Shown here: one piece after another, positions 21,176-31,539 of the stretch
Layout of the letters: every line of letters starts with the position of its first letter
Numbering within the stretch: position 1 is the stretch's first letter
From: Candidatus Helarchaeota ASGARD archaeon Hel_GB_B
Lineage (GTDB): Archaea > Asgardarchaeota > Lokiarchaeia > Helarchaeales > HEL-GB-B
Direction: 5' to 3'
Assembly: GCA_005191425.1 (NCBI GenBank)
Contig: SUPR01000026.1
Coordinates: forward strand, 1 to 32,000
DNA length: 32,000 nt
Notes under the pieces: model-generated
What the model was told of the DNA's origin: nothing
The model's input: only the letters and a program-made list of their open reading frames with translations
Databases searched by the model: none
Position numbers and translations under genes: made by a program

Positions 21176-21505
21176 ATGAAAAAATCTCGATTAACATTTG
21201 TATGTACTCAATTGGGAGTAACTGATTATTTATCATGGCATAATGAAAATACATTCAATGATTTAATTGTTAATTTGAAGCAAAAATATGAAAATCAAGT
21301 CTTGAAATACTTAAGAAAAAATTTTCAAAATATTCGAGAAAACATTACATTAAATGAAATTACTATTAAATTACATTATTTTGATAAGGAAGGAAATATT
21401 TTATCTATTGGAAATTTTGTTCCGGTTATTGAGATTATATCAAAAGGAATTAATAAAATATATTGGGATCCAGAGCCAATAGGAGGTATTATGTATCTCA
21501 CGTGA
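21176..21505 (+). CDS. Ubiquitin-like (beta-grasp) precursor protein with GG followed by a short tail
   Basis: Beta-beta-alpha-beta pattern (RLTFVCTQ, TDYLSW, TFNDLIVNLKQKY, IKLHYF, KIYWDP) ending EPIGG-IMYLT; immediately upstream of E2-like and JAB genes. Confidence 0.7.
   Translation: MKKSRLTFVCTQLGVTDYLSWHNENTFNDLIVNLKQKYENQVLKYLRKNFQNIRENITLNEITIKLHYFDKEGNILSIGNFVPVIEIISKGINKIYWDPEPIGGIMYLT
21481..21487 (+). promoter_or_regulatory. Perfect Shine-Dalgarno-like AGGAGGT overlapping the Ubl di-Gly codons, 3 nt before ATG 21491
   Basis: Seen directly. It may simply reflect GGA GGT Gly codons. Confidence 0.4.
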
Positions 21506-21533
21506 AAAATTCGCTGAGCATATTTATGATTTA

Positions 21534-21848
21534 TTGACCAGAAAAGGTTATTATTCAAATACATGGAGTTTAATAGATAAGAAAAATTATTCAAAAGGAA
21601 TATTTAGTTATTTAGTAAATAGTAAAAATCAAATTTTTGTTGTAGAAATATTATATAATGAGAATTACCCAAATAGACCTCCAATAGTCCATAGCAGTCC
21701 TTCTATTCGCGATCCTTGCTGGGATTCTAGAGGATATCTTCATTTTGCGGTAGCAGGGCGCGATTTTGCATGGAGTATATTTAAAAAGTCTTCTAACCCA
21801 TTAATATATCTCATTGATGAGTTAGCCATAAAATATAAAATAATATAA
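21534..21848 (+). CDS. UBC/E2-like protein with an atypical active site (start uncertain; frame open from 21483)
   Basis: VEILYNENYPNRPPIV matches the UBC xPxxYPxxPPxV motif. IRDPCWDSRGYLHF aligns with the HPNIdxxGxICL motif. Confidence 0.65.
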   Translation: MTRKGYYSNTWSLIDKKNYSKGIFSYLVNSKNQIFVVEILYNENYPNRPPIVHSSPSIRDPCWDSRGYLHFAVAGRDFAWSIFKKSSNPLIYLIDELAIKYKII

Positions 21849-21893
21849 ATTGAGTTCAAATAATACTACGAATTTATAATTTAACCAAGAAAA

Positions 21894-22946
21894 TTGATAG
21901 AAATGTTAGTAATAGTTAAAGATAAGACAATTGAAGAATGTAAAAACGAAGTAAATGAATTTTTGAAGGGAAAATCATTTCATGAGGTTGGTGGATATTT
22001 AATTGGTACATATGATTATGATGCATCTATTGAATTATTTTTTTTAGATAAAAAAGCGGAATCTACTTCTACTAGAATTAAATTGAGTAGTGATTCCTTC
22101 CTTGAAGTCGAAAAATTATTAACCAAATTTCCAAATTTTCAATATTTAGGGACATGGCATGTCCATCCTGGAAAAGGATTACCAATCAAATCTGAAATCG
22201 ATGAAGCCACTTTATTTTTAGAACGATTTGTAATAGAGACCGATAATCCAGAGCAATACAAATGCCCAAGGATTCATATTATATTTAATGAAAATTTCAC
22301 CGAAATTAAGTGTTATACAATGAATTTAGACTTAGATTATGAATTATTTGAAGTTGAATCAATGACAAAATCAAATTTAGATTTGTTAGACATTATTAAT
22401 ATAATCAAGGAGAAATTAAACGAAATTGAAATATCAAATGGTAAAATAGATTTAGATGATTTAGAGGACATTTATAATAATTTAGTTGAAATTAGAGATA
22501 TGATTGACGGGTCTTTAGATTCACTTGAATCATTATTTATATTTGAAGAATTCAAGGAAATTTTTTATAATAATACTGAAAATATCGAAAACATTATTTT
22601 ATCAAATATAAGAAATAATGTTAATATTGGAATTCTAACTATGACCGATAAAAAAGTTATTATTGGTCTACCTTATCACCCTGAAATTATAGATTCTGCT
22701 GATGTTAATTCAGAACTTTTTGGATTTTGGAAGTATTTTCCCTATACAAAAATTGATTTATCATTTGAAAAAATTTTTCTAACGAATTTCTATCTAAAAA
22801 CAAAAGAAGAATATAGCAATCAATTTTTTTATTTCAGGTGCAATAAAGAGCTCCGCATAGAGCCATTTGTAGTAAGGTTTAATTCATATGATGGACTAAG
22901 ATATGATGAAGTAGAATTAAATATAATTAAAGACTCAGATTTCTGA
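21894..22946 (+). CDS. JAB/MPN+ (JAMM) metallo-isopeptidase with a long C-terminal extension (start may be ATG 21903)
   Basis: HEVGGYLIG (catalytic Glu), LGTWHVHPG and SEID give a complete E...HxH...SxxD JAMM motif. Confidence 0.85.
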   Translation: MIEMLVIVKDKTIEECKNEVNEFLKGKSFHEVGGYLIGTYDYDASIELFFLDKKAESTSTRIKLSSDSFLEVEKLLTKFPNFQYLGTWHVHPGKGLPIKSEIDEATLFLERFVIETDNPEQYKCPRIHIIFNENFTEIKCYTMNLDLDYELFEVESMTKSNLDLLDIINIIKEKLNEIEISNGKIDLDDLEDIYNNLVEIRDMIDGSLDSLESLFIFEEFKEIFYNNTENIENIILSNIRNNVNIGILTMTDKKVIIGLPYHPEIIDSADVNSELFGFWKYFPYTKIDLSFEKIFLTNFYLKTKEEYSNQFFYFRCNKELRIEPFVVRFNSYDGLRYDEVELNIIKDSDF

Positions 22947-22957
22947 TCTTATATATT

Positions 22958-24097
22958 TTAGATATTATATCCTATTATGTCCAAATAATAATTTTTTATT
23001 CTTTCTTCTAGAATACCTTCCACATTATCTGTTAATGGTTTTAATAATAGTGCAATTGGTCGTTGATCTCCCATAAACCCAGCAGAATCAAAATCTTTAT
23101 TACCATAATATGGAAGTTCAGCATTAACAACGGCAACTCCGCCTTTCATCGACCTAATTAATGTAGAAATAAATGCTTTTTTTTCATCTGAAGTTATGTC
23201 GTCCTTAAATACTGAGAAAATCCAAAATCCAAGTGGGACTGTATCTACTTCCATACGAACTTCGTAAACATAATAAAGCTGTGCCCCTAAAACTTCATTT
23301 CCCTCTTTCCAAACTTTAAAAAACCCACCAAACGGTGTATTTGGGTACTTTTCTCTCAATTTTGTATAATCCCATGAGCTAATATCTAAAACGCTGTTTA
23401 CCATTTCAACAAATTCTTGTTTAGTCCATATTCGTGCTAATGGATATTTTTTTGAAAAGTTATTTAATAAATGAATAACCTGGTCATAATCATCAGATGT
23501 GGCGTCCAAAATTTTTCCCCGTTCAATATCAGCTTTTTTCAAGCCCGCGACCAGTTTAGCTGCATTATATTCAAGAGCATTCATTTTTCTAGCACCTTTT
23601 AATAAATCTAACCCTTCTCTCCCAACAATCTTTATTAGGGCTTCACTATTTTTTCTACCCTTTATTAGCCCAAAACCTCTAGAATTTAAAAAATCAATAT
23701 CATCTTGCTCTTCTTTTTTCAAGAGTGCAGCATATATAACATCATGTTTGCCATCAATTATTTTTTCAATTAAATAGTCAACGAGTTCCTCTTTTATACT
23801 CTTTTTACTCCAATAATCTGGGTCAATCGCCACCCTTCCCAATCCCGAAATTTTAATATTTTTTTGATTGTATTTTCCATTGACTGAACTAGCTCCGATC
23901 ACACCAATTAATTTATTGTCATAGAATGCTCCAATATTATATTTTAAACCCCCAAATATATATTTGGCATAATTTTCAGTGTATGGTGGTCCTTCTTGGT
24001 CTTCAATTCGGTTCTGAAAGATGGCCTTACGGAATTTATCGCATAATACAGAAATTTCCTTGTAATTACCTTTTACATCCTTAATTTCAATATTCAT
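22958..24097 (-). CDS. Tandem GNAT-fold acyltransferase
   Basis: First GNAT: GAFYDNKLIGVIG, LGRVAIDPDY, FLNSRGF. Second: ILDATSDDYDQVIHLLNNF..KYPLARIWT.QEF, KVWKEGNEVLG, SAGFM. Confidence 0.75.
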   Translation of the reverse strand: MNIEIKDVKGNYKEISVLCDKFRKAIFQNRIEDQEGPPYTENYAKYIFGGLKYNIGAFYDNKLIGVIGASSVNGKYNQKNIKISGLGRVAIDPDYWSKKSIKEELVDYLIEKIIDGKHDVIYAALLKKEEQDDIDFLNSRGFGLIKGRKNSEALIKIVGREGLDLLKGARKMNALEYNAAKLVAGLKKADIERGKILDATSDDYDQVIHLLNNFSKKYPLARIWTKQEFVEMVNSVLDISSWDYTKLREKYPNTPFGGFFKVWKEGNEVLGAQLYYVYEVRMEVDTVPLGFWIFSVFKDDITSDEKKAFISTLIRSMKGGVAVVNAELPYYGNKDFDSAGFMGDQRPIALLLKPLTDNVEGILEERIKNYYLDIIGYNI

Positions 24098-24354
24098 TAT
24101 ATTCCACTCTAAACTAAAATAAAATTATAATCTTAATATTTATTTGATATAATTATAACATAATTTTTAATTTGTTTTTGTTTTAAATAATTTGATTAAG
24201 TTAGAAATAATTTATAGATGTTTCGATGGATGTACAAATTATTATGAAATTTAAAAAAAGAGAATTTGAAAATAATATAAAATCAGACGAAATAAAATCA
24301 GTTTGAAATTATTATTTAGTTAATGTCTAATAATATGTTAATAAATTATGGGCT

Positions 24355-25032
24355 ATGATAAAAATGAGTGAATTTGAGGAACAAAAAAAGATAGTTTTAG
24401 ATGCAGCTAAGACTTTTTTAAGAACCGGGCTTACTGTAGGGACTTCAGGTAATATTAGTCTAAGGACAGGCAAAAAAGCCACTACTATGGCAATAACTCC
24501 TAGTAGTAGAGAATATGACGAATTGACTTTGGACGATATAATAATTGTAGACTTCTCAGATGAAGAAGATAATATCAAAGTTATTGAAGGAAATTGGTCT
24601 CCATCTTCAGAAACAATTTTGCATTCATATATTTATAAAAAAAGAAAAAAGATTAACGCAATAATTCATTATCACCCAGTATTCTCAACAGCATGTGGTC
24701 TTGTTCTAGATGAATTACCTGCAATTCTTGATGACCAGACTTTTTTCCTTGGTGGAGCAATACCTGTTACAAAAGAATATGCAGTTTCTGGCTCGAAAGA
24801 GCTTGCTCGTCAAGTACAAGAACTTATTGCTAATACAAATGCAATAATTATTAGAAATCATGGTTCTATCGGAATTGGAAAAAACATTGAATATGCTTTT
24901 GAAGCATGTCAGTTATTGGAGAAAACCGCAAAGATTTATGTTTATGCTAAATTATTGGGTGGAAACATTAAATTTATGGACGAAAAGTCAATAAAAAATA
25001 ATATCGGCCTATTTAAAGCGATAAGAAAATAA
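24355..25032 (+). CDS. Class II aldolase/adducin family (fuculose-1-phosphate aldolase-like; start may be ATG 24364)
   Basis: GTSGNIS, ITPS, PSSE..LH..IY, IIHYHP and IIRNHG (Zn ligands). Confidence 0.9.
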   Translation: MIKMSEFEEQKKIVLDAAKTFLRTGLTVGTSGNISLRTGKKATTMAITPSSREYDELTLDDIIIVDFSDEEDNIKVIEGNWSPSSETILHSYIYKKRKKINAIIHYHPVFSTACGLVLDELPAILDDQTFFLGGAIPVTKEYAVSGSKELARQVQELIANTNAIIIRNHGSIGIGKNIEYAFEACQLLEKTAKIYVYAKLLGGNIKFMDEKSIKNNIGLFKAIRK

Positions 25033-25067
25033 ATTTTTCAAAAATTAATAAAATTAACTGACCTTTT

Positions 25068-26165
25068 ATGAATAAAAAAAACATAACCGTCCTATTTCAA
25101 AATCCGGACACTTTAGATTCGATTGAAATTAAAATTGAAAATAAAAATTATTATATAAGAGATATTGCCGAACAAATAATAGACAAATTTAATTTAAAAT
25201 CTCCTCCAATATTTTTTACGATTTTTAAAGACAAACCAACTGAAAATCAATATTTAGAAGAAAATGATAAATTAATTGATGTATTAGAAAAAAGATTAGA
25301 TGAAAAAATACCTATTTGGTGGCGGTCTAGTGATTTAAATGAAGACATTATGTATAATTTAAGAGTTAACAGATTTATTAAATCTGGATATAAAATCGAT
25401 ATAATCAAAAATAAGAATATTATGATCGTAGGTATTGGGCTATTAGGCTCAGAACTTGCTTTACATTGCGCCACAATTGGTATTAAAAATATTACGGTTA
25501 TTGATTATGGTTCTGTAGACTGGTATAATATTTATAGACAACCTTTATACACTAAAAATGATGTATTTAAAAGAAAAGTAGATGTGGCAAAAAATAAACT
25601 AGAATCAATAGGTGGAATAAATGTCAATTCAATATACATAGAAATTCCAAATTTTAATTCCTTGAATATAGAAAAAGATGTTGTTTTAAAGAACATCAAT
25701 ATATTAGAAAAAGCAGTAGAAAAAAATGACATAATTATCACCTCTTTGGATACTTTTAGTGCTAGAATGATAATTCAAATCCTTGCACTTGTCCATAATA
25801 AAATTTTAATAAATACAGCTGCAGGTCTTATCGGGGGGATTATTCAAATTATAAGACCTTTTCAAGACCCTTGTATTGGATGCGGTACATTTTATGATAG
25901 AAATCAAGAAACTGGTGCATGTACATTAGCTTCCTTTGGAACTCCTAAAATAATTGCTGGATTATGTATTGATGTCCTACTTGACTTAATAGAAAACAGA
26001 AAAATAGAATTTAATTATTTAAAATTCCTTCCAAATTACACTATTGAGACTAAAACTTTCTTTAAGGCAGATAATTGTCAATTCTGTGGTGAAAATGGCA
26101 TTGCTTCAGTGTACAATAAAAATTATAAAAAGGAATTACTCAACTGGTTATTTAATAATCATTAA
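25068..26165 (+). CDS. ThiF/MoeB/E1-like activating enzyme with an N-terminal beta-grasp-like domain
   Basis: GIGLLG, ID.G.VD..NIYRQ, KV, LDTFSAR, Zn site PCIGC...CQFC, and candidate catalytic Cys in ETGACT. Confidence 0.88.
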   Translation: MNKKNITVLFQNPDTLDSIEIKIENKNYYIRDIAEQIIDKFNLKSPPIFFTIFKDKPTENQYLEENDKLIDVLEKRLDEKIPIWWRSSDLNEDIMYNLRVNRFIKSGYKIDIIKNKNIMIVGIGLLGSELALHCATIGIKNITVIDYGSVDWYNIYRQPLYTKNDVFKRKVDVAKNKLESIGGINVNSIYIEIPNFNSLNIEKDVVLKNINILEKAVEKNDIIITSLDTFSARMIIQILALVHNKILINTAAGLIGGIIQIIRPFQDPCIGCGTFYDRNQETGACTLASFGTPKIIAGLCIDVLLDLIENRKIEFNYLKFLPNYTIETKTFFKADNCQFCGENGIASVYNKNYKKELLNWLFNNH

Positions 26166-26185: not shown

Positions 26186-26416
26186 CTAATCAATCTTTTT
26201 TAAATATTCATCATTACATTTCGGGCATTCTGGTGACAATAAAGCATCTTTTTCTGAACCTTTCCAATCACAGTTTGGACAGACATAACTTCCTCCTATT
26301 TTCATCAGACGATAAAGCGGACTATGACCTGTAAAGCATTCAGGACATATATGTACATTTATCAGTTCTGATTCTGGCCCATTCCACCCACATTGGGTAC
26401 ATTTATAAGTTGTCAT
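26186..26416 (-). CDS. Small tandem zinc-ribbon protein
   Basis: Four CxxC motifs forming two homologous units: YKCTQCGWNG..CPEC and YVCPNCDWKG..CPKC. Confidence 0.75.
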   Translation of the reverse strand: MTTYKCTQCGWNGPESELINVHICPECFTGHSPLYRLMKIGGSYVCPNCDWKGSEKDALLSPECPKCNDEYLKKID

Positions 26417-26592: not shown

Positions 26593-27270
26593 ATGCAATC
26601 AAGTACCCTTATAAATCTAATAACTGGAATTTTAGAAGATTCAATGAAACTTTTAAAAAAGATAGAGAAAAATATAGACTATCAAGGTAAACTATTAAAT
26701 TCATTATCGGAAAAATTTGATGTAATAGGCGACAAAATTGAACAATCTTTTAATAATTTAAATAATGTCCAACTTGGGACTTTTTTTAGTGATATTTCAT
26801 CTCGATTTGACCTAATAGATGTAAACAAATTAAAAGAAATAGACGATGAAATTAATGATATTTCCAATATACTCCAAAAAAATTTTCAAATTCAAATGAT
26901 TTCTATTTTAAGAGAATATGTAGACCTTAACTTATCGTTCCCTACTCGTTCTGAATTAACTCAAAGAAGTTCATTTTTCAGGAAGTCAAATATAATTTCA
27001 ACTCCTTCTCATCACAGTTTTTCCAAAAAATCACAGAGCGTAGATACTAAAATAGAAGGTGATTGGTCGGAGAGTGAATTAGAAGGCGGGGAAATTTTTG
27101 AAAAAATAATAATTGGTTGGAAACGCCGAGATTTTGAGAAAGCTCAAGGTACAAAAGAAATTTTTATGAAAGCATGGAAGAAACTTTCCAGTTATGATAA
27201 AGCACAGATTAAAAATGGTGCTTGGAGTAAAAAATTAATCGATAAAATAAAGTTATTGGGGAGGAACTAA
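26593..27270 (+). CDS. Hypothetical protein upstream of the mcr operon
   Basis: 225-codon ORF with a coiled-coil-like N-half, Ser-rich linker and Trp-rich C-terminal domain of about 65 aa. Confidence 0.7.
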   Translation: MQSSTLINLITGILEDSMKLLKKIEKNIDYQGKLLNSLSEKFDVIGDKIEQSFNNLNNVQLGTFFSDISSRFDLIDVNKLKEIDDEINDISNILQKNFQIQMISILREYVDLNLSFPTRSELTQRSSFFRKSNIISTPSHHSFSKKSQSVDTKIEGDWSESELEGGEIFEKIIIGWKRRDFEKAQGTKEIFMKAWKKLSSYDKAQIKNGAWSKKLIDKIKLLGRN

Positions 27271-27502: not shown

Positions 27503-28885
27503 ATGAAGTATTCGGATAAAATAGATGTATTTGACGATATGGGAAATAATATTGCTGAGGATCTACCGATTGAGAGTTTATCACCATTAATAAATCCATT
27601 TATACTTGACATTTTGAACTTTTTTAAACGGACTGCATTTGTTAATCTTAAAAAGTTAGAATTCATGCTACAAAGCGGTCAGATTGGGTACACAAGTTCT
27701 ATGAAGCAAGATGAAATTCAAATATCCTGTTATACCCGTCCTTGGGAAATAATTGAAAATGCAGAAGCTTTAATTGACCTAATCAAGAAAAAGATCCAAG
27801 TATCTGAGAATGATGATTCAAATGTTGTTTTGCTACCAGGAAATGAAGTATTAATGGTACAACTCCCTAAAGAACGGATTAGAGCTGCTGCAGGACGCGA
27901 CTCAGCTTTTTCAATTGCAGGTGAAGCCACTTTACAAGCTATATCTGAAGTTCATAATATAACTCCTTTGTCCGACCCTGATGGTTGTAATATTTTAAAA
28001 AGTATCATTTTTGGAAGATATCCACAAACAAGGACATTTCCCCCAAGAAATCCGTTGTTTACACTTCTCCACCCGTTTCATACTCAAGAAGGATTAGGAA
28101 ATGGATTTAGGGGCATTACAATTAATCATATTGTCGCTTTAACACAAAAAAGAACTTTTGACGCGGTAATCTTAAGTACAATTCTTGAACAAGCTTCCCA
28201 ATTTGAAATGGGAAATACTATTGGATGGTTTGAACGGTATAACTTGCTCGGAATGGCATATCAAAGTTTCAATGCAGACCGCGTCTTACTTGACCTTATT
28301 GATGAAAATAAAAATGGGACGGTAGGTGATGTGGTTACTTCCTTAGTAAGAATTGGAATTGAAGATGATATTATTAAACCAAAAAAGAGGTCTTATCCTT
28401 ATAAATTGTTCTCTGGATATAAAATATATTCAGTAAAAGATTATGATATGTGGAATGCATATACTTGTGCTGGACTGTTAGCAGCAGTTCTTGTAAATTG
28501 TGGTGCAAGTAGAAGTGCACAATCTATATCTTCAGCTATTACTAGTTTTTGTGATTTATTAATGTTTGAATCTGGTGGCCTACCCGATCCTGATTGCGGA
28601 AGGGTTATGGGTACAGGCCTTGGACTAAGTCATTTTAATCATGACATTTTCAGTATTGGTGGAACCGGTCTTTTATCATTAGATAATGTTTTAATTAGAA
28701 ATAATTCGGGTTTTGTTGCACCTTGTCTTGCAGCTGCAATGAGTTTAGATAGTGGAACTCAATTATATCGCCCCGAAGTTACTTCTGAAATATTTTTTAA
28801 AATTAGGGAAGCTGACCCGATTTTTAAAGGCCCTCTTATTAATAAAGTTGTTGAGTCAGCTCTAGAAATCAAACATAAAATCTAA
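27503..28885 (+). CDS. mcrB: Methyl/alkyl-coenzyme M reductase beta subunit homologue (divergent)
   Basis: DKIDVFDD.G, LSPL.NP, KRT..VNL, GRYPQ, QEG.G, LSTILEQ..QFEMG..IG.FER, WNAY..AG and AAAMSLD.GTQ are colinear with McrB. Confidence 0.93.
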   Translation: MKYSDKIDVFDDMGNNIAEDLPIESLSPLINPFILDILNFFKRTAFVNLKKLEFMLQSGQIGYTSSMKQDEIQISCYTRPWEIIENAEALIDLIKKKIQVSENDDSNVVLLPGNEVLMVQLPKERIRAAAGRDSAFSIAGEATLQAISEVHNITPLSDPDGCNILKSIIFGRYPQTRTFPPRNPLFTLLHPFHTQEGLGNGFRGITINHIVALTQKRTFDAVILSTILEQASQFEMGNTIGWFERYNLLGMAYQSFNADRVLLDLIDENKNGTVGDVVTSLVRIGIEDDIIKPKKRSYPYKLFSGYKIYSVKDYDMWNAYTCAGLLAAVLVNCGASRSAQSISSAITSFCDLLMFESGGLPDPDCGRVMGTGLGLSHFNHDIFSIGGTGLLSLDNVLIRNNSGFVAPCLAAAMSLDSGTQLYRPEVTSEIFFKIREADPIFKGPLINKVVESALEIKHKI

Positions 28886-28899
28886 GGTGTGCATTAGAA

Positions 28900-29709
28900 A
28901 TGCCAATGAGTGAACGAAGAAAAAAGAAAAAAATTAAAGAATTTGAACCACAATACTATCCTGAATGTGATTACGTTGCTGAAAGACGCCGTAAAATTAT
29001 AAACCCAAATCGAAGACTAACAAAATTACGTCACATTCCTGACGATAATATAATTTCTTTATTAGGACATAGAGCTCCGGGTGGACTATACACTTCTATT
29101 CATCCTCCACTTGATGAATTGATGGAATCTTTTGACCCAATTAAAGAATTGATAGTCCCAAGTGATGGAGCAAAAATGGGTGATCGTATACGATTTGTCC
29201 AAATAATTGATTCATTTTGGAGACCACCTGTTGCACCATGGTTAAGGCATAAGTTTTATTTTACAAGGTTTAGAGGGGCTGATGTTGTAATTGATGCTGA
29301 AAGAACACTATTAGAAATGAGAGAACGTGATGTTGAAGCAGCAACAAAACTTCTCCTTGAAATGGAATTATTTGATCCCTCTAGAACTTCCTTAAAATCT
29401 GTTTCGCATGGTGGATATTCACATAGATTAGATGAAAACGAATTATCTTTTGATTTGCGGAGAAGATGTATTCTTGACAAAGAATCAGGGCATATAATTT
29501 ACGTCAAAAATATGTCTGGCGAAATATTAGACAAACCTATTTCATTGGGTTTTCCTATAGCTGATGAAGATCTGAAAACTATTGACGTTACTTGGCGCTG
29601 GGACAGTTCTCAATATAAGTCAAAAAGCGAAATCTTAATGGTCTTAAGTCGTATAGCTGAGAACCGTATTTTGGGAGGTTTTAAACCTAATATGTTAAAT
29701 TATAGGTGA
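28900..29709 (+). CDS. mcrG: Methyl/alkyl-coenzyme M reductase gamma subunit homologue (divergent)
   Basis: PQYYP, LLGHRAPG, SIHPPL, GAK.GDRIR..Q..DS, RFRGAD, RERD.E, FDP.R and RLDEN...FD.RRR. Confidence 0.92.
   Translation: MPMSERRKKKKIKEFEPQYYPECDYVAERRRKIINPNRRLTKLRHIPDDNIISLLGHRAPGGLYTSIHPPLDELMESFDPIKELIVPSDGAKMGDRIRFVQIIDSFWRPPVAPWLRHKFYFTRFRGADVVIDAERTLLEMRERDVEAATKLLLEMELFDPSRTSLKSVSHGGYSHRLDENELSFDLRRRCILDKESGHIIYVKNMSGEILDKPISLGFPIADEDLKTIDVTWRWDSSQYKSKSEILMVLSRIAENRILGGFKPNMLNYR
29704..29709 (+). promoter_or_regulatory. RBS-like AGGTGA for mcrA, overlapping the mcrG stop
   Basis: AGGTGA 6 nt upstream of ATG 29716; supports translational coupling of the operon. Confidence 0.55.
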
Positions 29710-29715
29710 ATTAAA

Positions 29716-31539
29716 ATGAGTGGACCGTTAAAAAAAGGAAAATTACCAAAAGAATTAACAAGTCAAATGGAAGCAACAGCAGCTGCCTCTCAATATCTTC
29801 GACAGGCAGTAAAAAATATGCGTGATTTTATACCACTTGAAAAGCAACGCCGAATATATAAAGATCTTGAAAAAATGTTTGGTGTTGACCCGTTAAACCT
29901 AATTGATGAAAAAATGTATATGAGAAAAGGATTTAACCAGTCCGCAGCGATAATGAAAAATAAAGAATTAGGTAGATTAATCGCTTTAGACCGTTTTATT
30001 CCAATGTATGACCCAAGTGTAAGTGAACCAATTGGTCATCAGCAATTATTTCCATATAAAATATCTGGTACTGACGAAATTGTATCTGGAAATTCTCTTC
30101 ATTGTTTCAATAATGTCGCGATGCAACAGTTATTTGATGATGTCAGACGCACTACAATTTTAAATCTTGATGTCCCTCACAAAGTGATTCAAGTGCGAGC
30201 AAGTAAAGAGGTTACACCTGAAACTATTGATCATTTTCTTAAAACTTTACAACATACAATTGCAGGTGGTACTGTTTCACTTGATCAGTTTGCTGATATA
30301 AATCCTGAATTAACCAGAGATGCATATTGTAAAATAATCACGGGAAATGACGAATTAAGAGAATTAATTGATAATAGATTTTCTATTGACATTAATGCCG
30401 GCTTTCATAAATCTAGAGCTGAAAAGTTAAAACATGCAATTGGTGATACAATACATTTAGTTGTTAGAGCACCAACAATACTAGTAAGAGCATTAGATAA
30501 TTCAGTTGCTTTTAAATGGGCCGGAATCCAGAGTACTCTGGCATTTATCGTTGCTTATCGTTTGACCAAAGATTCTAACCTTGCAGATATTTCATATGCA
30601 ACTCAATATGCTAATACCATAGCTCTTGGAGAACCTACATGGCAATCATTAGGCGGACATTATAATTCAATCGCCGGTATTCCTTTTGGCTATATAGCTG
30701 ATATGTGTCAAGGTGATTCTCAATTACCTTTAAGACCTTTTATGGAAATTACAAATGAAGACCCCAAATTGTCTCGTGAATATTTAAAAAAGTCTATTGG
30801 GTGTGTAGGCGTTATCGCTCCCATTTTAACAAATTTTTGGGATGGATATCAACTGTCTGGTGGTGCCAATATCCTTGATAATGTTGTTATAGACACCTTT
30901 ACTGGTGGTATATTTGATGATTTTATTGATATTATGAATGATATGATGAACAAATATTTTTCGCGTATTGTCAAAATTGGCATGAATTTAATGCCAACTC
31001 GCTGGTATAATTTAAGATGGCCAGTTGAAAATATGGTAAATATTGTTATGGAAACAATGGAAAAATATCCATCGGCTATGGAAACTTTAAAACTAGGTAT
31101 TCAAAAAATGTATATAATTGGGCTCGTAGCAGGGATAATGGCATCTCTCTTATCTGGAAGTTCAACTGCTGGATTATGGGCTATTGATTATGCAATCAGT
31201 CTTTTAGTAAAAGAGGGTTGGTGCCGCACAGGGACAACTGGCTATGAAATTATCAATCAATTAGGGCTCCCTTATTCATGTTCATTACGTATTGAAGAAG
31301 GTGGATTACCAGAACTAAGAGGTATGAATAATTTTCATCAAATCCATTCAATTGGTAGCGCAGTCCCCAGAATCGCTGTATTATATGCAGCTGCACTAGC
31401 CCGGGGGGATGCTTGGGTATCAAGCCCTCTAATTAAAGTAGTTTTCAATGACCCTCACCTTTCATTTGATTTTAAAGACCCAATATCTGCTATTATTAAA
31501 GGTACAAAAGGTGAATTTAAACCTAAAGGAGAAAGTTAA
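29716..31539 (+). CDS. mcrA: Methyl/alkyl-coenzyme M reductase alpha subunit homologue, ACR-like and highly degenerate at the active site
   Basis: IPMYDP, LH..NN.AMQQ..DD.RRT, KEVTPETI, TGNDE, G.PFGY.AD.CQ, SGG, GLPYSCSLRIEEGGLPELRG, ARGDAW and PLIKV.F.D..L.FDF. Confidence 0.93.
   Translation: MSGPLKKGKLPKELTSQMEATAAASQYLRQAVKNMRDFIPLEKQRRIYKDLEKMFGVDPLNLIDEKMYMRKGFNQSAAIMKNKELGRLIALDRFIPMYDPSVSEPIGHQQLFPYKISGTDEIVSGNSLHCFNNVAMQQLFDDVRRTTILNLDVPHKVIQVRASKEVTPETIDHFLKTLQHTIAGGTVSLDQFADINPELTRDAYCKIITGNDELRELIDNRFSIDINAGFHKSRAEKLKHAIGDTIHLVVRAPTILVRALDNSVAFKWAGIQSTLAFIVAYRLTKDSNLADISYATQYANTIALGEPTWQSLGGHYNSIAGIPFGYIADMCQGDSQLPLRPFMEITNEDPKLSREYLKKSIGCVGVIAPILTNFWDGYQLSGGANILDNVVIDTFTGGIFDDFIDIMNDMMNKYFSRIVKIGMNLMPTRWYNLRWPVENMVNIVMETMEKYPSAMETLKLGIQKMYIIGLVAGIMASLLSGSSTAGLWAIDYAISLLVKEGWCRTGTTGYEIINQLGLPYSCSLRIEEGGLPELRGMNNFHQIHSIGSAVPRIAVLYAAALARGDAWVSSPLIKVVFNDPHLSFDFKDPISAIIKGTKGEFKPKGES

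Follow-up and report, generated by a model that had tools for sequence, protein, structure and literature searches.

The stretch of 32,000 nucleotides from Candidatus Helarchaeota archaeon Hel_GB_B analysed here (the window; contig C103 of the 3.54-Mb assembly G000, 28% GC) contains, at 21176-26165 on the plus strand, the genes of a ubiquitin-like protein (Ubl) conjugation cascade: a Ubl modifier, a minimal E2, a JAB protease and an E1 activator (Table 1). These four proteins probably represent an undescribed family of thioester-type Ubl conjugation systems, which has been vertically kept in Helarchaeales and most likely serves the housekeeping modification of cellular targets. Public records label the proteins only as hypothetical proteins or as ThiF family, and our literature search found no publication describing this Ubl-E2-JAB-E1 system. 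The original prediction, made from the sequence of the window, had called the four genes a conjugation cascade; all six open reading frames (ORFs) of the region are found where it had placed them, and all four components are borne out by the evidence given below.

Components of the cascade

The Ubl precursor is, as had been noticed at the outset, far from ubiquitin. It matches no Pfam or NCBIfam family, the Pfam ubiquitin family included; its near relatives make up only four clusters among 5.8 billion proteins; and no usable match was found in the ESM Atlas. The AlphaFold2 (AF2) model, built from 14 homologs with pLDDT of 89.3, has a β-β-α-α-β-β-α-β order, i.e., two strands, two helices, two strands, a short helix and a final strand. 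All 50 matches listed in the Foldseek search of PDB are ubiquitin-like or β-grasp proteins or contain such domains (PB1, RAWUL, FERM-F1, RA/RBD, ubiquitin and SUMO), and none of them is especially close, with TM about 0.5-0.6. The insert of about 20 residues after helix 1, also pointed out earlier, consists of a second helix (residues 39-49) and a loop, and is seen as a 19-column gap in the alignment with the N-terminal domain of the E1 (see below). The signature EP(I/V)GG is invariant among the 14 homologs, and what comes after it is either an unconserved stretch of 1-13 residues or an E2 domain; because residues always follow GG, every member of the family needs C-terminal processing. In the window, the mature end is Gly103-Gly104 (codons GGAGGT, 21482-21487), and the tail IMYLT (21488-21502) would be removed, as the original prediction had also proposed.

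The E2-like protein does have the UBC fold that had been suspected, while the start assigned to it (TTG 21534) was wrong by 13 codons, as discussed in the next section. Its AF2 model (pLDDT 90.9, with a helix at residues 2-15) retrieves only UBC, UEV and RWD folds in Foldseek, all of the top 50 matches being UBC-fold E2 or UEV proteins, with VIA Z up to 9.2. The protein is a minimal UBC core without the two C-terminal helices. Sequence similarity to known families is low: the score against Pfam UQ_con is 17.4 bits, below the 27-bit cut-off; a Pfam scan of 19 Ubl-E2 fusions gave no match to any family, Prok-E2 included; and a search with the profile through 1.84 billion cluster representatives yielded only 37 members of the E2 family, most of them Ubl-E2 fusions of 204-260 residues. 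Cys75 (codon 21717-21719), the only invariant cysteine, is kept in 29 diverse members, among them both paralogs found in Helarchaeales, and aligns without gaps to the position of the HPN asparagine of UbcH7 and of the UEVs. In the HMMER alignment of the E2 profile with UbcH7 (6cp2_B), positions 48-85 correspond to residues 51-88, so that position 75 falls on residue 78, while position 83 is paired with Cys86, the known active site of UbcH7. The canonical-Cys position is occupied by His in the window and is not conserved across the wider family.

A protein of this kind might also be a non-catalytic, UEV-like adaptor, either with the E1 conjugating the modifier directly, as in sampylation, or with Cys75 in a structural role. 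The best PDB sequence matches of the E2 family profile are in fact UEV proteins and the UEV-like domain of VPS37A, and the cysteine is found off the canonical site and is absent from some relatives; but it is invariant in the 29 diverse members, both paralogs among them, and the diverged E2s of Bub systems, with unusual nucleophiles, are still catalytic (10.1101/2024.11.21.623953), which leaves the adaptor role with a slender chance. An E2 with its sole conserved Cys at the HPN-Asn position makes a direct test case for E2 active-site plasticity.

The E1 has one ThiF domain (residues 111-330; Pfam ThiF, 1.8e-31), and contains the ATP site, the zinc site and the candidate catalytic cysteine that were ascribed to it from the start. 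Invariant are R102, the GxGxxG motif (122-127; 25431-25448), D146, R157-Q158, K170, D228, two zinc-type CxxC pairs at 269-272 and 337-340, and Cys285 (25920-25922), the candidate catalytic residue, which in the alignment falls on the CT-motif Cys of the ATG7 crossover loop. The best solved relatives are ATG7 chains (3.6e-16 with the single sequence, 108.6 bits with the profile), and the alignment spans the CxxC as well as the crossover-loop Cys. We do not call the protein an ATG7 ortholog, because, at the profile level, ATG7 leads UBA5, MoeB and Uba1 by only about 12 bits and because in NCBIfam the ThiF model scores above Apg7, with ThiF, MoeB and UbaA all far below their cut-offs; as judged by its sequence, it is a compact non-canonical E1. 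Residues 1-92 form a domain homologous to Ubl: residues 6-75 match the system's own Ubl family (hhalign 94%, E 1.1e-7), and the domain has neither the helical insert nor GG. The predicted complex of E1 with mature Ubl lends weak support to their interaction: it scored 0.37, against 0.00 for the best control, with 88% or more of the contacts shared between runs and a partner pLDDT no lower than 73. Of the solved complexes, 58 of 80 reach the mark used for such predictions, as do 2 of 110 mismatched pairs; only 7 of the 80, and both of the passing mismatches, do so with scores at or below 0.60, and likeness to solved E1-Ubl complexes may contribute to the score obtained here.

The JAB protein consists of a JAB domain, a lineage-specific insert in the middle and a conserved C-terminal domain. 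The JAMM motif, described as intact in the original prediction, is made of E31, H89-x-H91, S100 and D103 (numbered from 21894), all of which are invariant or nearly so, distant members included. The protein scores 8.2e-10 against the JAB model of PADLOC and has no Pfam match. A PDB search gave no match with the single sequence; with the family profile, it retrieved JAMM structures of the archaeal Rpn11-like type (2.5e-4), the best of them being the Rpn11-like protein of Caldiarchaeum. In the ESM Atlas, the C-terminal part gave only weak JAB-type leads. Translation probably starts at ATG 21903, as orthologs align from residue 4 and the ESM Atlas record also begins there.

The Ubl/E2 junction

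The first helix of the E2, which contains the conserved FAEHxYDL, is encoded in overlap with the Ubl tail and in the +1 frame with respect to Ubl, and no ATG, GTG or TTG lies upstream of it. The conserved E2 frame opens at 21483, and a start at TTG 21534 (104 residues) lops off the helix; the E2 proposed here is longer by 13 codons. In these added codons, the ratio of synonymous to non-synonymous ortholog differences is 108/110 in the E2 frame versus 29/220 in the Ubl frame. In all eight orthologs that have the overlapping arrangement, an ATH codon is found exactly 8 nt past GG(A/G)GG, that is, past the Gly-Gly codons of Ubl, which resemble a Shine-Dalgarno sequence; other genes of the window have GGTGA-type Shine-Dalgarno sequences with compatible spacing. 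The operon E2 would thus probably be translated, at a low level, from AUC 21495 in the +1 frame, 8 nt past the GGAGG that encodes Gly-Gly. An AUH start within such a Gly-Gly overlap would be a case of gene overlap truncated by gene callers.

A +1 ribosomal frameshift, yielding a Ubl-E2 fusion, was considered as well, as the E2 is +1-framed in the eight orthologs and most relatives are fused. It is quite unlikely, because no slippery site is common to the orthologs, because the Ubl stop coincides with the candidate frameshift site in just 4 of the 8 orthologs and is far downstream in L019 and L020, and because the genome G005 has a separate E2 with an ATG start; initiation at AUC is favoured over it. 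An assembly indel was rejected, since the junction is identical in register, with no indels, in three independent metagenome assemblies. Two metagenome assemblies have a strain variant, T to A at 21492, which changes Met to Lys in the Ubl tail and Cys to Ser in the codon before the proposed E2 start; ATC 21495 and its spacing are unaffected.

Linkage, distribution and a second Ubl-E2 pair

We compared seven Helarchaeales genomes of three families (82-94% complete) and searched, outside the order, 54 genomes from the sister families of its class and 393 other genomes of the Asgard phylum. The Ubl and E2 families are found in 7/7 genomes of the order; no real Ubl match was found in the 54 genomes of the sister families, and the E2 family is present in only 4 of the 393 others. 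In five other genomes of the order (G002-G006), from two further families, the genes for Ubl, E2, JAB and E1 stand side by side or almost so, and in family f2 the operon is flanked by syntenic housekeeping genes. Across families, only these four genes stay together, and they are likewise found together in distant lineages, where seven loci keep the [Ubl(-)E2]-JAB-E1 order. A lack of co-occurrence in other genomes, which the original prediction had named as evidence against itself, is thereby clearly contradicted. Ubl and E2 are fused in most of the distant members, JAB and E1 in some (L050, G398, G399), and one distant protein is a Ubl-E2-JAB triple fusion (P0086). Labels of several distant contigs (Cloacimonadota, Cytophagales, Deferrimicrobium), all of them short, come from bins of metagenome-assembled genomes, and are not trusted as evidence of bacterial hosts. 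Among IMG/VR viral contigs, no relative was confirmed with the E1 and E2 alignment patterns used.

The set is split in the window, as the original prediction stated, by a GNAT-like gene on the opposite strand and a class II aldolase gene, but the split is limited to the genus of the window, and in the other families the set is contiguous. The two genes are found between JAB and E1 only in this genus (GNAT in the window, L001, L020 and L042); they are a genus-specific insertion, and GNAT does not belong to the conserved module. In its phyletic distribution, the GNAT family parallels the Ubl system (7/7 genomes of the order, 0/54 of the sister families), with the gene located elsewhere in the genome in other families; a PDB search with its single sequence gave no match.

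A second Ubl-E2 pair is encoded in the same genome as one fused protein of 220 residues (L010:9794-10456; contig C83 of G000, 31793-32455). Three genomes have the pair fused, and three have it split. The window genome thus has two Ubl and two E2 proteins of the family, and only one JAB and one E1. All E2 paralogs of the second pair (E2b) end in a conserved acidic-aromatic tail, YG(L/I)DLFFDL, which is missing in the operon E2 and could be a short docking motif.

The canonical Asgard ubiquitin cluster is located elsewhere in the assembly, on contig C128 of G000 (58.8-66.1 kb), and comprises, besides ubiquitin, a 434-aa E1 that has a tail of ubiquitin fold and two to three E2s of the UQ_con family. 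The genome also has four further ThiF genes. A further E1 is found on C178 (7.6-9.5 kb), where it adjoins a weak UQ_con match.

Several of the distant cassettes have neighbours with a Ubl-like domain (L021:4178-4939, L022:4629-5435, L024:2457-3671 and L050:1121-2326); L021/L022 and L024 have it at the N-terminus, L050 at the C-terminus. Two of these three kinds of proteins have apparent transmembrane stretches, and in other relatives Band_7 or Clp_N genes are found alongside the cassette. The adjoining proteins may be anchors or targets.

Table 1. Positions of the features discussed, in the window unless a locus is named
Feature	Position	Strand	Basis
Ubl precursor, 109 aa	21176..21505	+	AF2 model, beta-grasp matches, invariant EP(I/V)GG
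Junction signal: GGAGG (Gly-Gly codons, Shine-Dalgarno-like), 8-nt spacer, ATC 21495 (proposed E2 start)	21482..21497	+	Ortholog conservation
Minimal E2, 117 aa as proposed	21495..21848	+	AF2 model, Foldseek, invariant Cys75
JAMM/JAB metalloprotease, 347 aa from ATG	21903..22946 (TTG 21894 also open)	+	PADLOC, motif, profile
E1, 365 aa	25068..26165	+	ThiF match, invariant residues
GNAT-like gene, 379 aa	22958..24097	-	Pfam Acetyltransf_1 3.7e-4
Class II aldolase/epimerase family gene	24355..25032	+	Pfam Aldolase_II 4.7e-43
Distant loci with [Ubl(-)E2]-JAB-E1 order	L021-24, L025, L026, L028, L050		

Mechanism, relation to known systems and function

The following sequence of steps is proposed on the basis of the conserved residues and of the behaviour of Bil and Bub systems. 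The JAMM protease would cut after Gly104 of the tailed Ubl, or split the Ubl-E2 polyprotein of the paralog. The E1, of the homodimer type with a single adenylation domain, would then adenylate Gly104 and load Ubl onto the crossover-loop Cys285, the E2 being probably recruited by the Ubl-like domain at the N-terminus of the E1. Ubl would pass to Cys75 of the minimal E2, at the place of the canonical HPN asparagine, and from there to the targets without an E3, and JAB could reverse the modification. One E1 and one JAB would serve both Ubl/E2 pairs. In Bil and Bub, JAB exposes the Gly by removal of a tail or by a polyprotein cut, the E1 activates, and the E2 conjugates without an E3; pre-processing by JAB has been demonstrated for BilC and BubCD (bioRxiv 10.1101/2023.09.26.559546; 10.1101/2024.11.21.623953). 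The Ubl tails and Ubl-E2 fusions described here match this pre-processing, and the anatomy of the system fits the same scheme.

One of the closest known systems is Type I Bub (6E.1/DUF6527; BubAB, BubCD, BubE; Ye, Gong, Chambers, Corbett, 10.1101/2024.11.21.623953), in which a Ubl-E2 fusion is cut by JAB at a junction Gly. Ubl-E2 fusions are found here in the paralog and in the majority of the distant relatives, JAB-E1 fusions in relatives, and both systems have a homodimer-type E1 with a single adenylation domain, an E2 without the two C-terminal helices, and no E3. Unlike Bub, which uses Tyr (E1) and Ser (E2) oxyesters, this system is expected to form thioesters, because its E1 and E2 both keep an invariant Cys (Cys285 and Cys75). 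The putative E2 nucleophile is, moreover, found at the HPN-Asn position and not at the usual one, the N-terminal domain of the E1 is Ubl-like, and the system is archaeal, present in all seven of the genomes searched in the order, and devoid of Pfam Prok-E2 matches. DUF6527 (BubE, PF20137) gave no match at E 0.1 among the operon proteins of the window and their neighbours, the distant loci not having been scanned. The system is not Bub, because the Cys residues are kept and no DUF6527 protease was found.

Type I/II Bil (BilABCD; Hör et al.; Chambers et al., 10.1101/2023.09.26.559546) shares with it the Ubl-E2-JAB-E1 order and, as predicted here, thioester chemistry without an E3 and JAB pre-processing of a Ubl, which in Bil has up to nine residues past the conserved Gly. 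In contrast to BilD, which has an inactive and an active adenylation domain in tandem (IAD-AAD) and a separate Cys domain, the E1 described here is a 365-aa protein with one adenylation domain; PADLOC matches BilC alone (0.027), with no match to BilA, BilB or BilD, and the structure of BilB ranks low against the E2 (Z 6.6). The system is not Bil, because the E1 architecture differs and the Bil models fail to match.

The eukaryote-like Ub-E1-E2-RING-Rpn11 operon of Caldiarchaeum and Asgards likewise combines a GG-ending β-grasp modifier, a UBC-fold E2, a JAMM protein and an E1. The system of the window is distinct from it, as was suggested from the sequence: no RING E3 was found among the six operon proteins or the neighbours scanned, there is no Pfam ubiquitin match, the E2 is under the UQ_con cut-off, the E1 is compact, the four genes co-occur as one contiguous operon in other families and distant lineages, and the canonical cluster is found separately, on C128. 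It is also distinct from sampylation: SAMP/UbaA, like ThiS/MoaD, are E2-independent and have a free GG, whereas here a tail is found in all members and the E2 is always linked. Iyer, Burroughs and Aravind are said to have described, in 2006, generic prokaryotic Ubl-E2-JAB-E1 conjugation operons, and all the hallmarks of such operons are found here, namely, the modifier, the E2, the JAMM and E1 motifs and the linkage, with the E2 Cys at HPN-Asn.

The original prediction also allowed for a sulfur carrier of the ThiS/MoaD/QbsE type, in which the E1 would produce a Ubl thiocarboxylate, JAB would trim the precursor like QbsD, and the E2-like protein would be an accessory. The E1 does belong to the ThiF/MoeB superfamily, and there are known sulfur carriers with residues past GG that a JAB processes (QbsE/QbsD, CysO/Mec). 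This role is nevertheless very improbable: a protein of UBC fold with an invariant Cys accompanies the Ubl in every case and is often fused to it, none of about 15 loci has a linked gene for a rhodanese, a cysteine desulfurase or cofactor biosynthesis, the scores against ThiF, MoeB and UbaA in NCBIfam are far below the cut-offs, and the five other ThiF-family genes of the genome can cover the MoeB, ThiF and SAMP roles.

The other hypothesis of the original prediction, antiviral or anti-mobile-element defence, would require the same biochemistry, with proteins of the invader tagged as in Bil, Bub or type II CBASS. It draws on the Bil-like gene order, on the Ubl-E2 and JAB-E1 fusions of the relatives, which recall Type I Bub, and on the fact that JAB and E1 score best against the CBASS Cap3/Cap2 models in PADLOC. 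The family is rare and patchily distributed beyond the order, one relative is found among transposases, and a toxin-antitoxin-sized gene pair lies just upstream of the operon in G004 (Hel_GB_A, a genome of the same order). On the other hand, the system is present in 7/7 genomes of an order with three families, its setting in family f2 is syntenic and of housekeeping type, the second, unlinked Ubl-E2 pair is also conserved, no defence genes are seen in the window, and in PADLOC the Bil models are met by BilC only. A cellular function is preferred to defence because of the presence in all genomes of the order that were searched, the syntenic housekeeping flanks and the conserved second pair; defence is unlikely, yet retains some probability because the relatives outside the order are sporadic.

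Several points weigh against housekeeping modification by thioester chemistry. The E2 Cys is off the canonical catalytic position, so that thioester chemistry on the E2 is an assumption, and it is lost in a few relatives, all of them metagenomic: the triple fusion P0086, the related P0082, and the stand-alone E2 P0075. The distant relatives are sporadic, one of them among transposases, as with defence systems, and the presence across the order could reflect an inherited defence system. Finally, the putative AUH start of the E2 is deduced from conservation and spacing.

Interest in the Asgard archaea has centred on ubiquitin genes of the eukaryote-like kind. One Asgard order has retained, in addition to these genes, another modifier system, non-canonical, as part of its core equipment, and the range of Bil, Bub and CBASS is widened to a vertically inherited archaeal version, probably with a housekeeping role.

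A more far-reaching idea, to which we give a low probability, is a dual modifier system with one ATG7-like E1 for two Ubl/E2 pairs, which may be a surviving archaeal relative of the ancestor of the ATG8/ATG12 machinery and whose E2 may use a Cys nucleophile relocated to the HPN-Asn position; such a relocation, if true, would be a catalytic arrangement undescribed for any E2. The ATG7 system is similar in that its E1 is the best solved match of the one described here, in that one E1 serves two Ubl/E2 pairs, and in that its E2s are non-canonical and lack HPN. It differs in the N-terminal domain of ATG7, which is not seen by sequence in this E1; neither ATG8 nor ATG12 is among the top 50 Foldseek matches of the Ubl; and ATG10 and ATG3 score Z 7.0-7.3 against the E2, below canonical E2/UEV proteins at 8-9.2, with no preference of the Ubl and E2 models for ATG8/12 or ATG3/10. 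A survey from 2024 found no prokaryotic homologue of the catalytic domain of ATG7 (PMC11354881); given this, the ATG7-like E1 of Helarchaeales makes the origin of ATG7-type systems testable.

The genes that follow the E1 in the window are a 76-aa double zinc-ribbon protein (26186-26416, minus strand) and a 225-aa protein (26593-27270, plus strand). Both are kept beside the E1 only within the genus (L001, L020), and are therefore placed outside the conserved module. Directly downstream, at 27503-31539, is the mcrBGA operon, in which Pfam identifies the MCR beta, gamma and alpha subunits.

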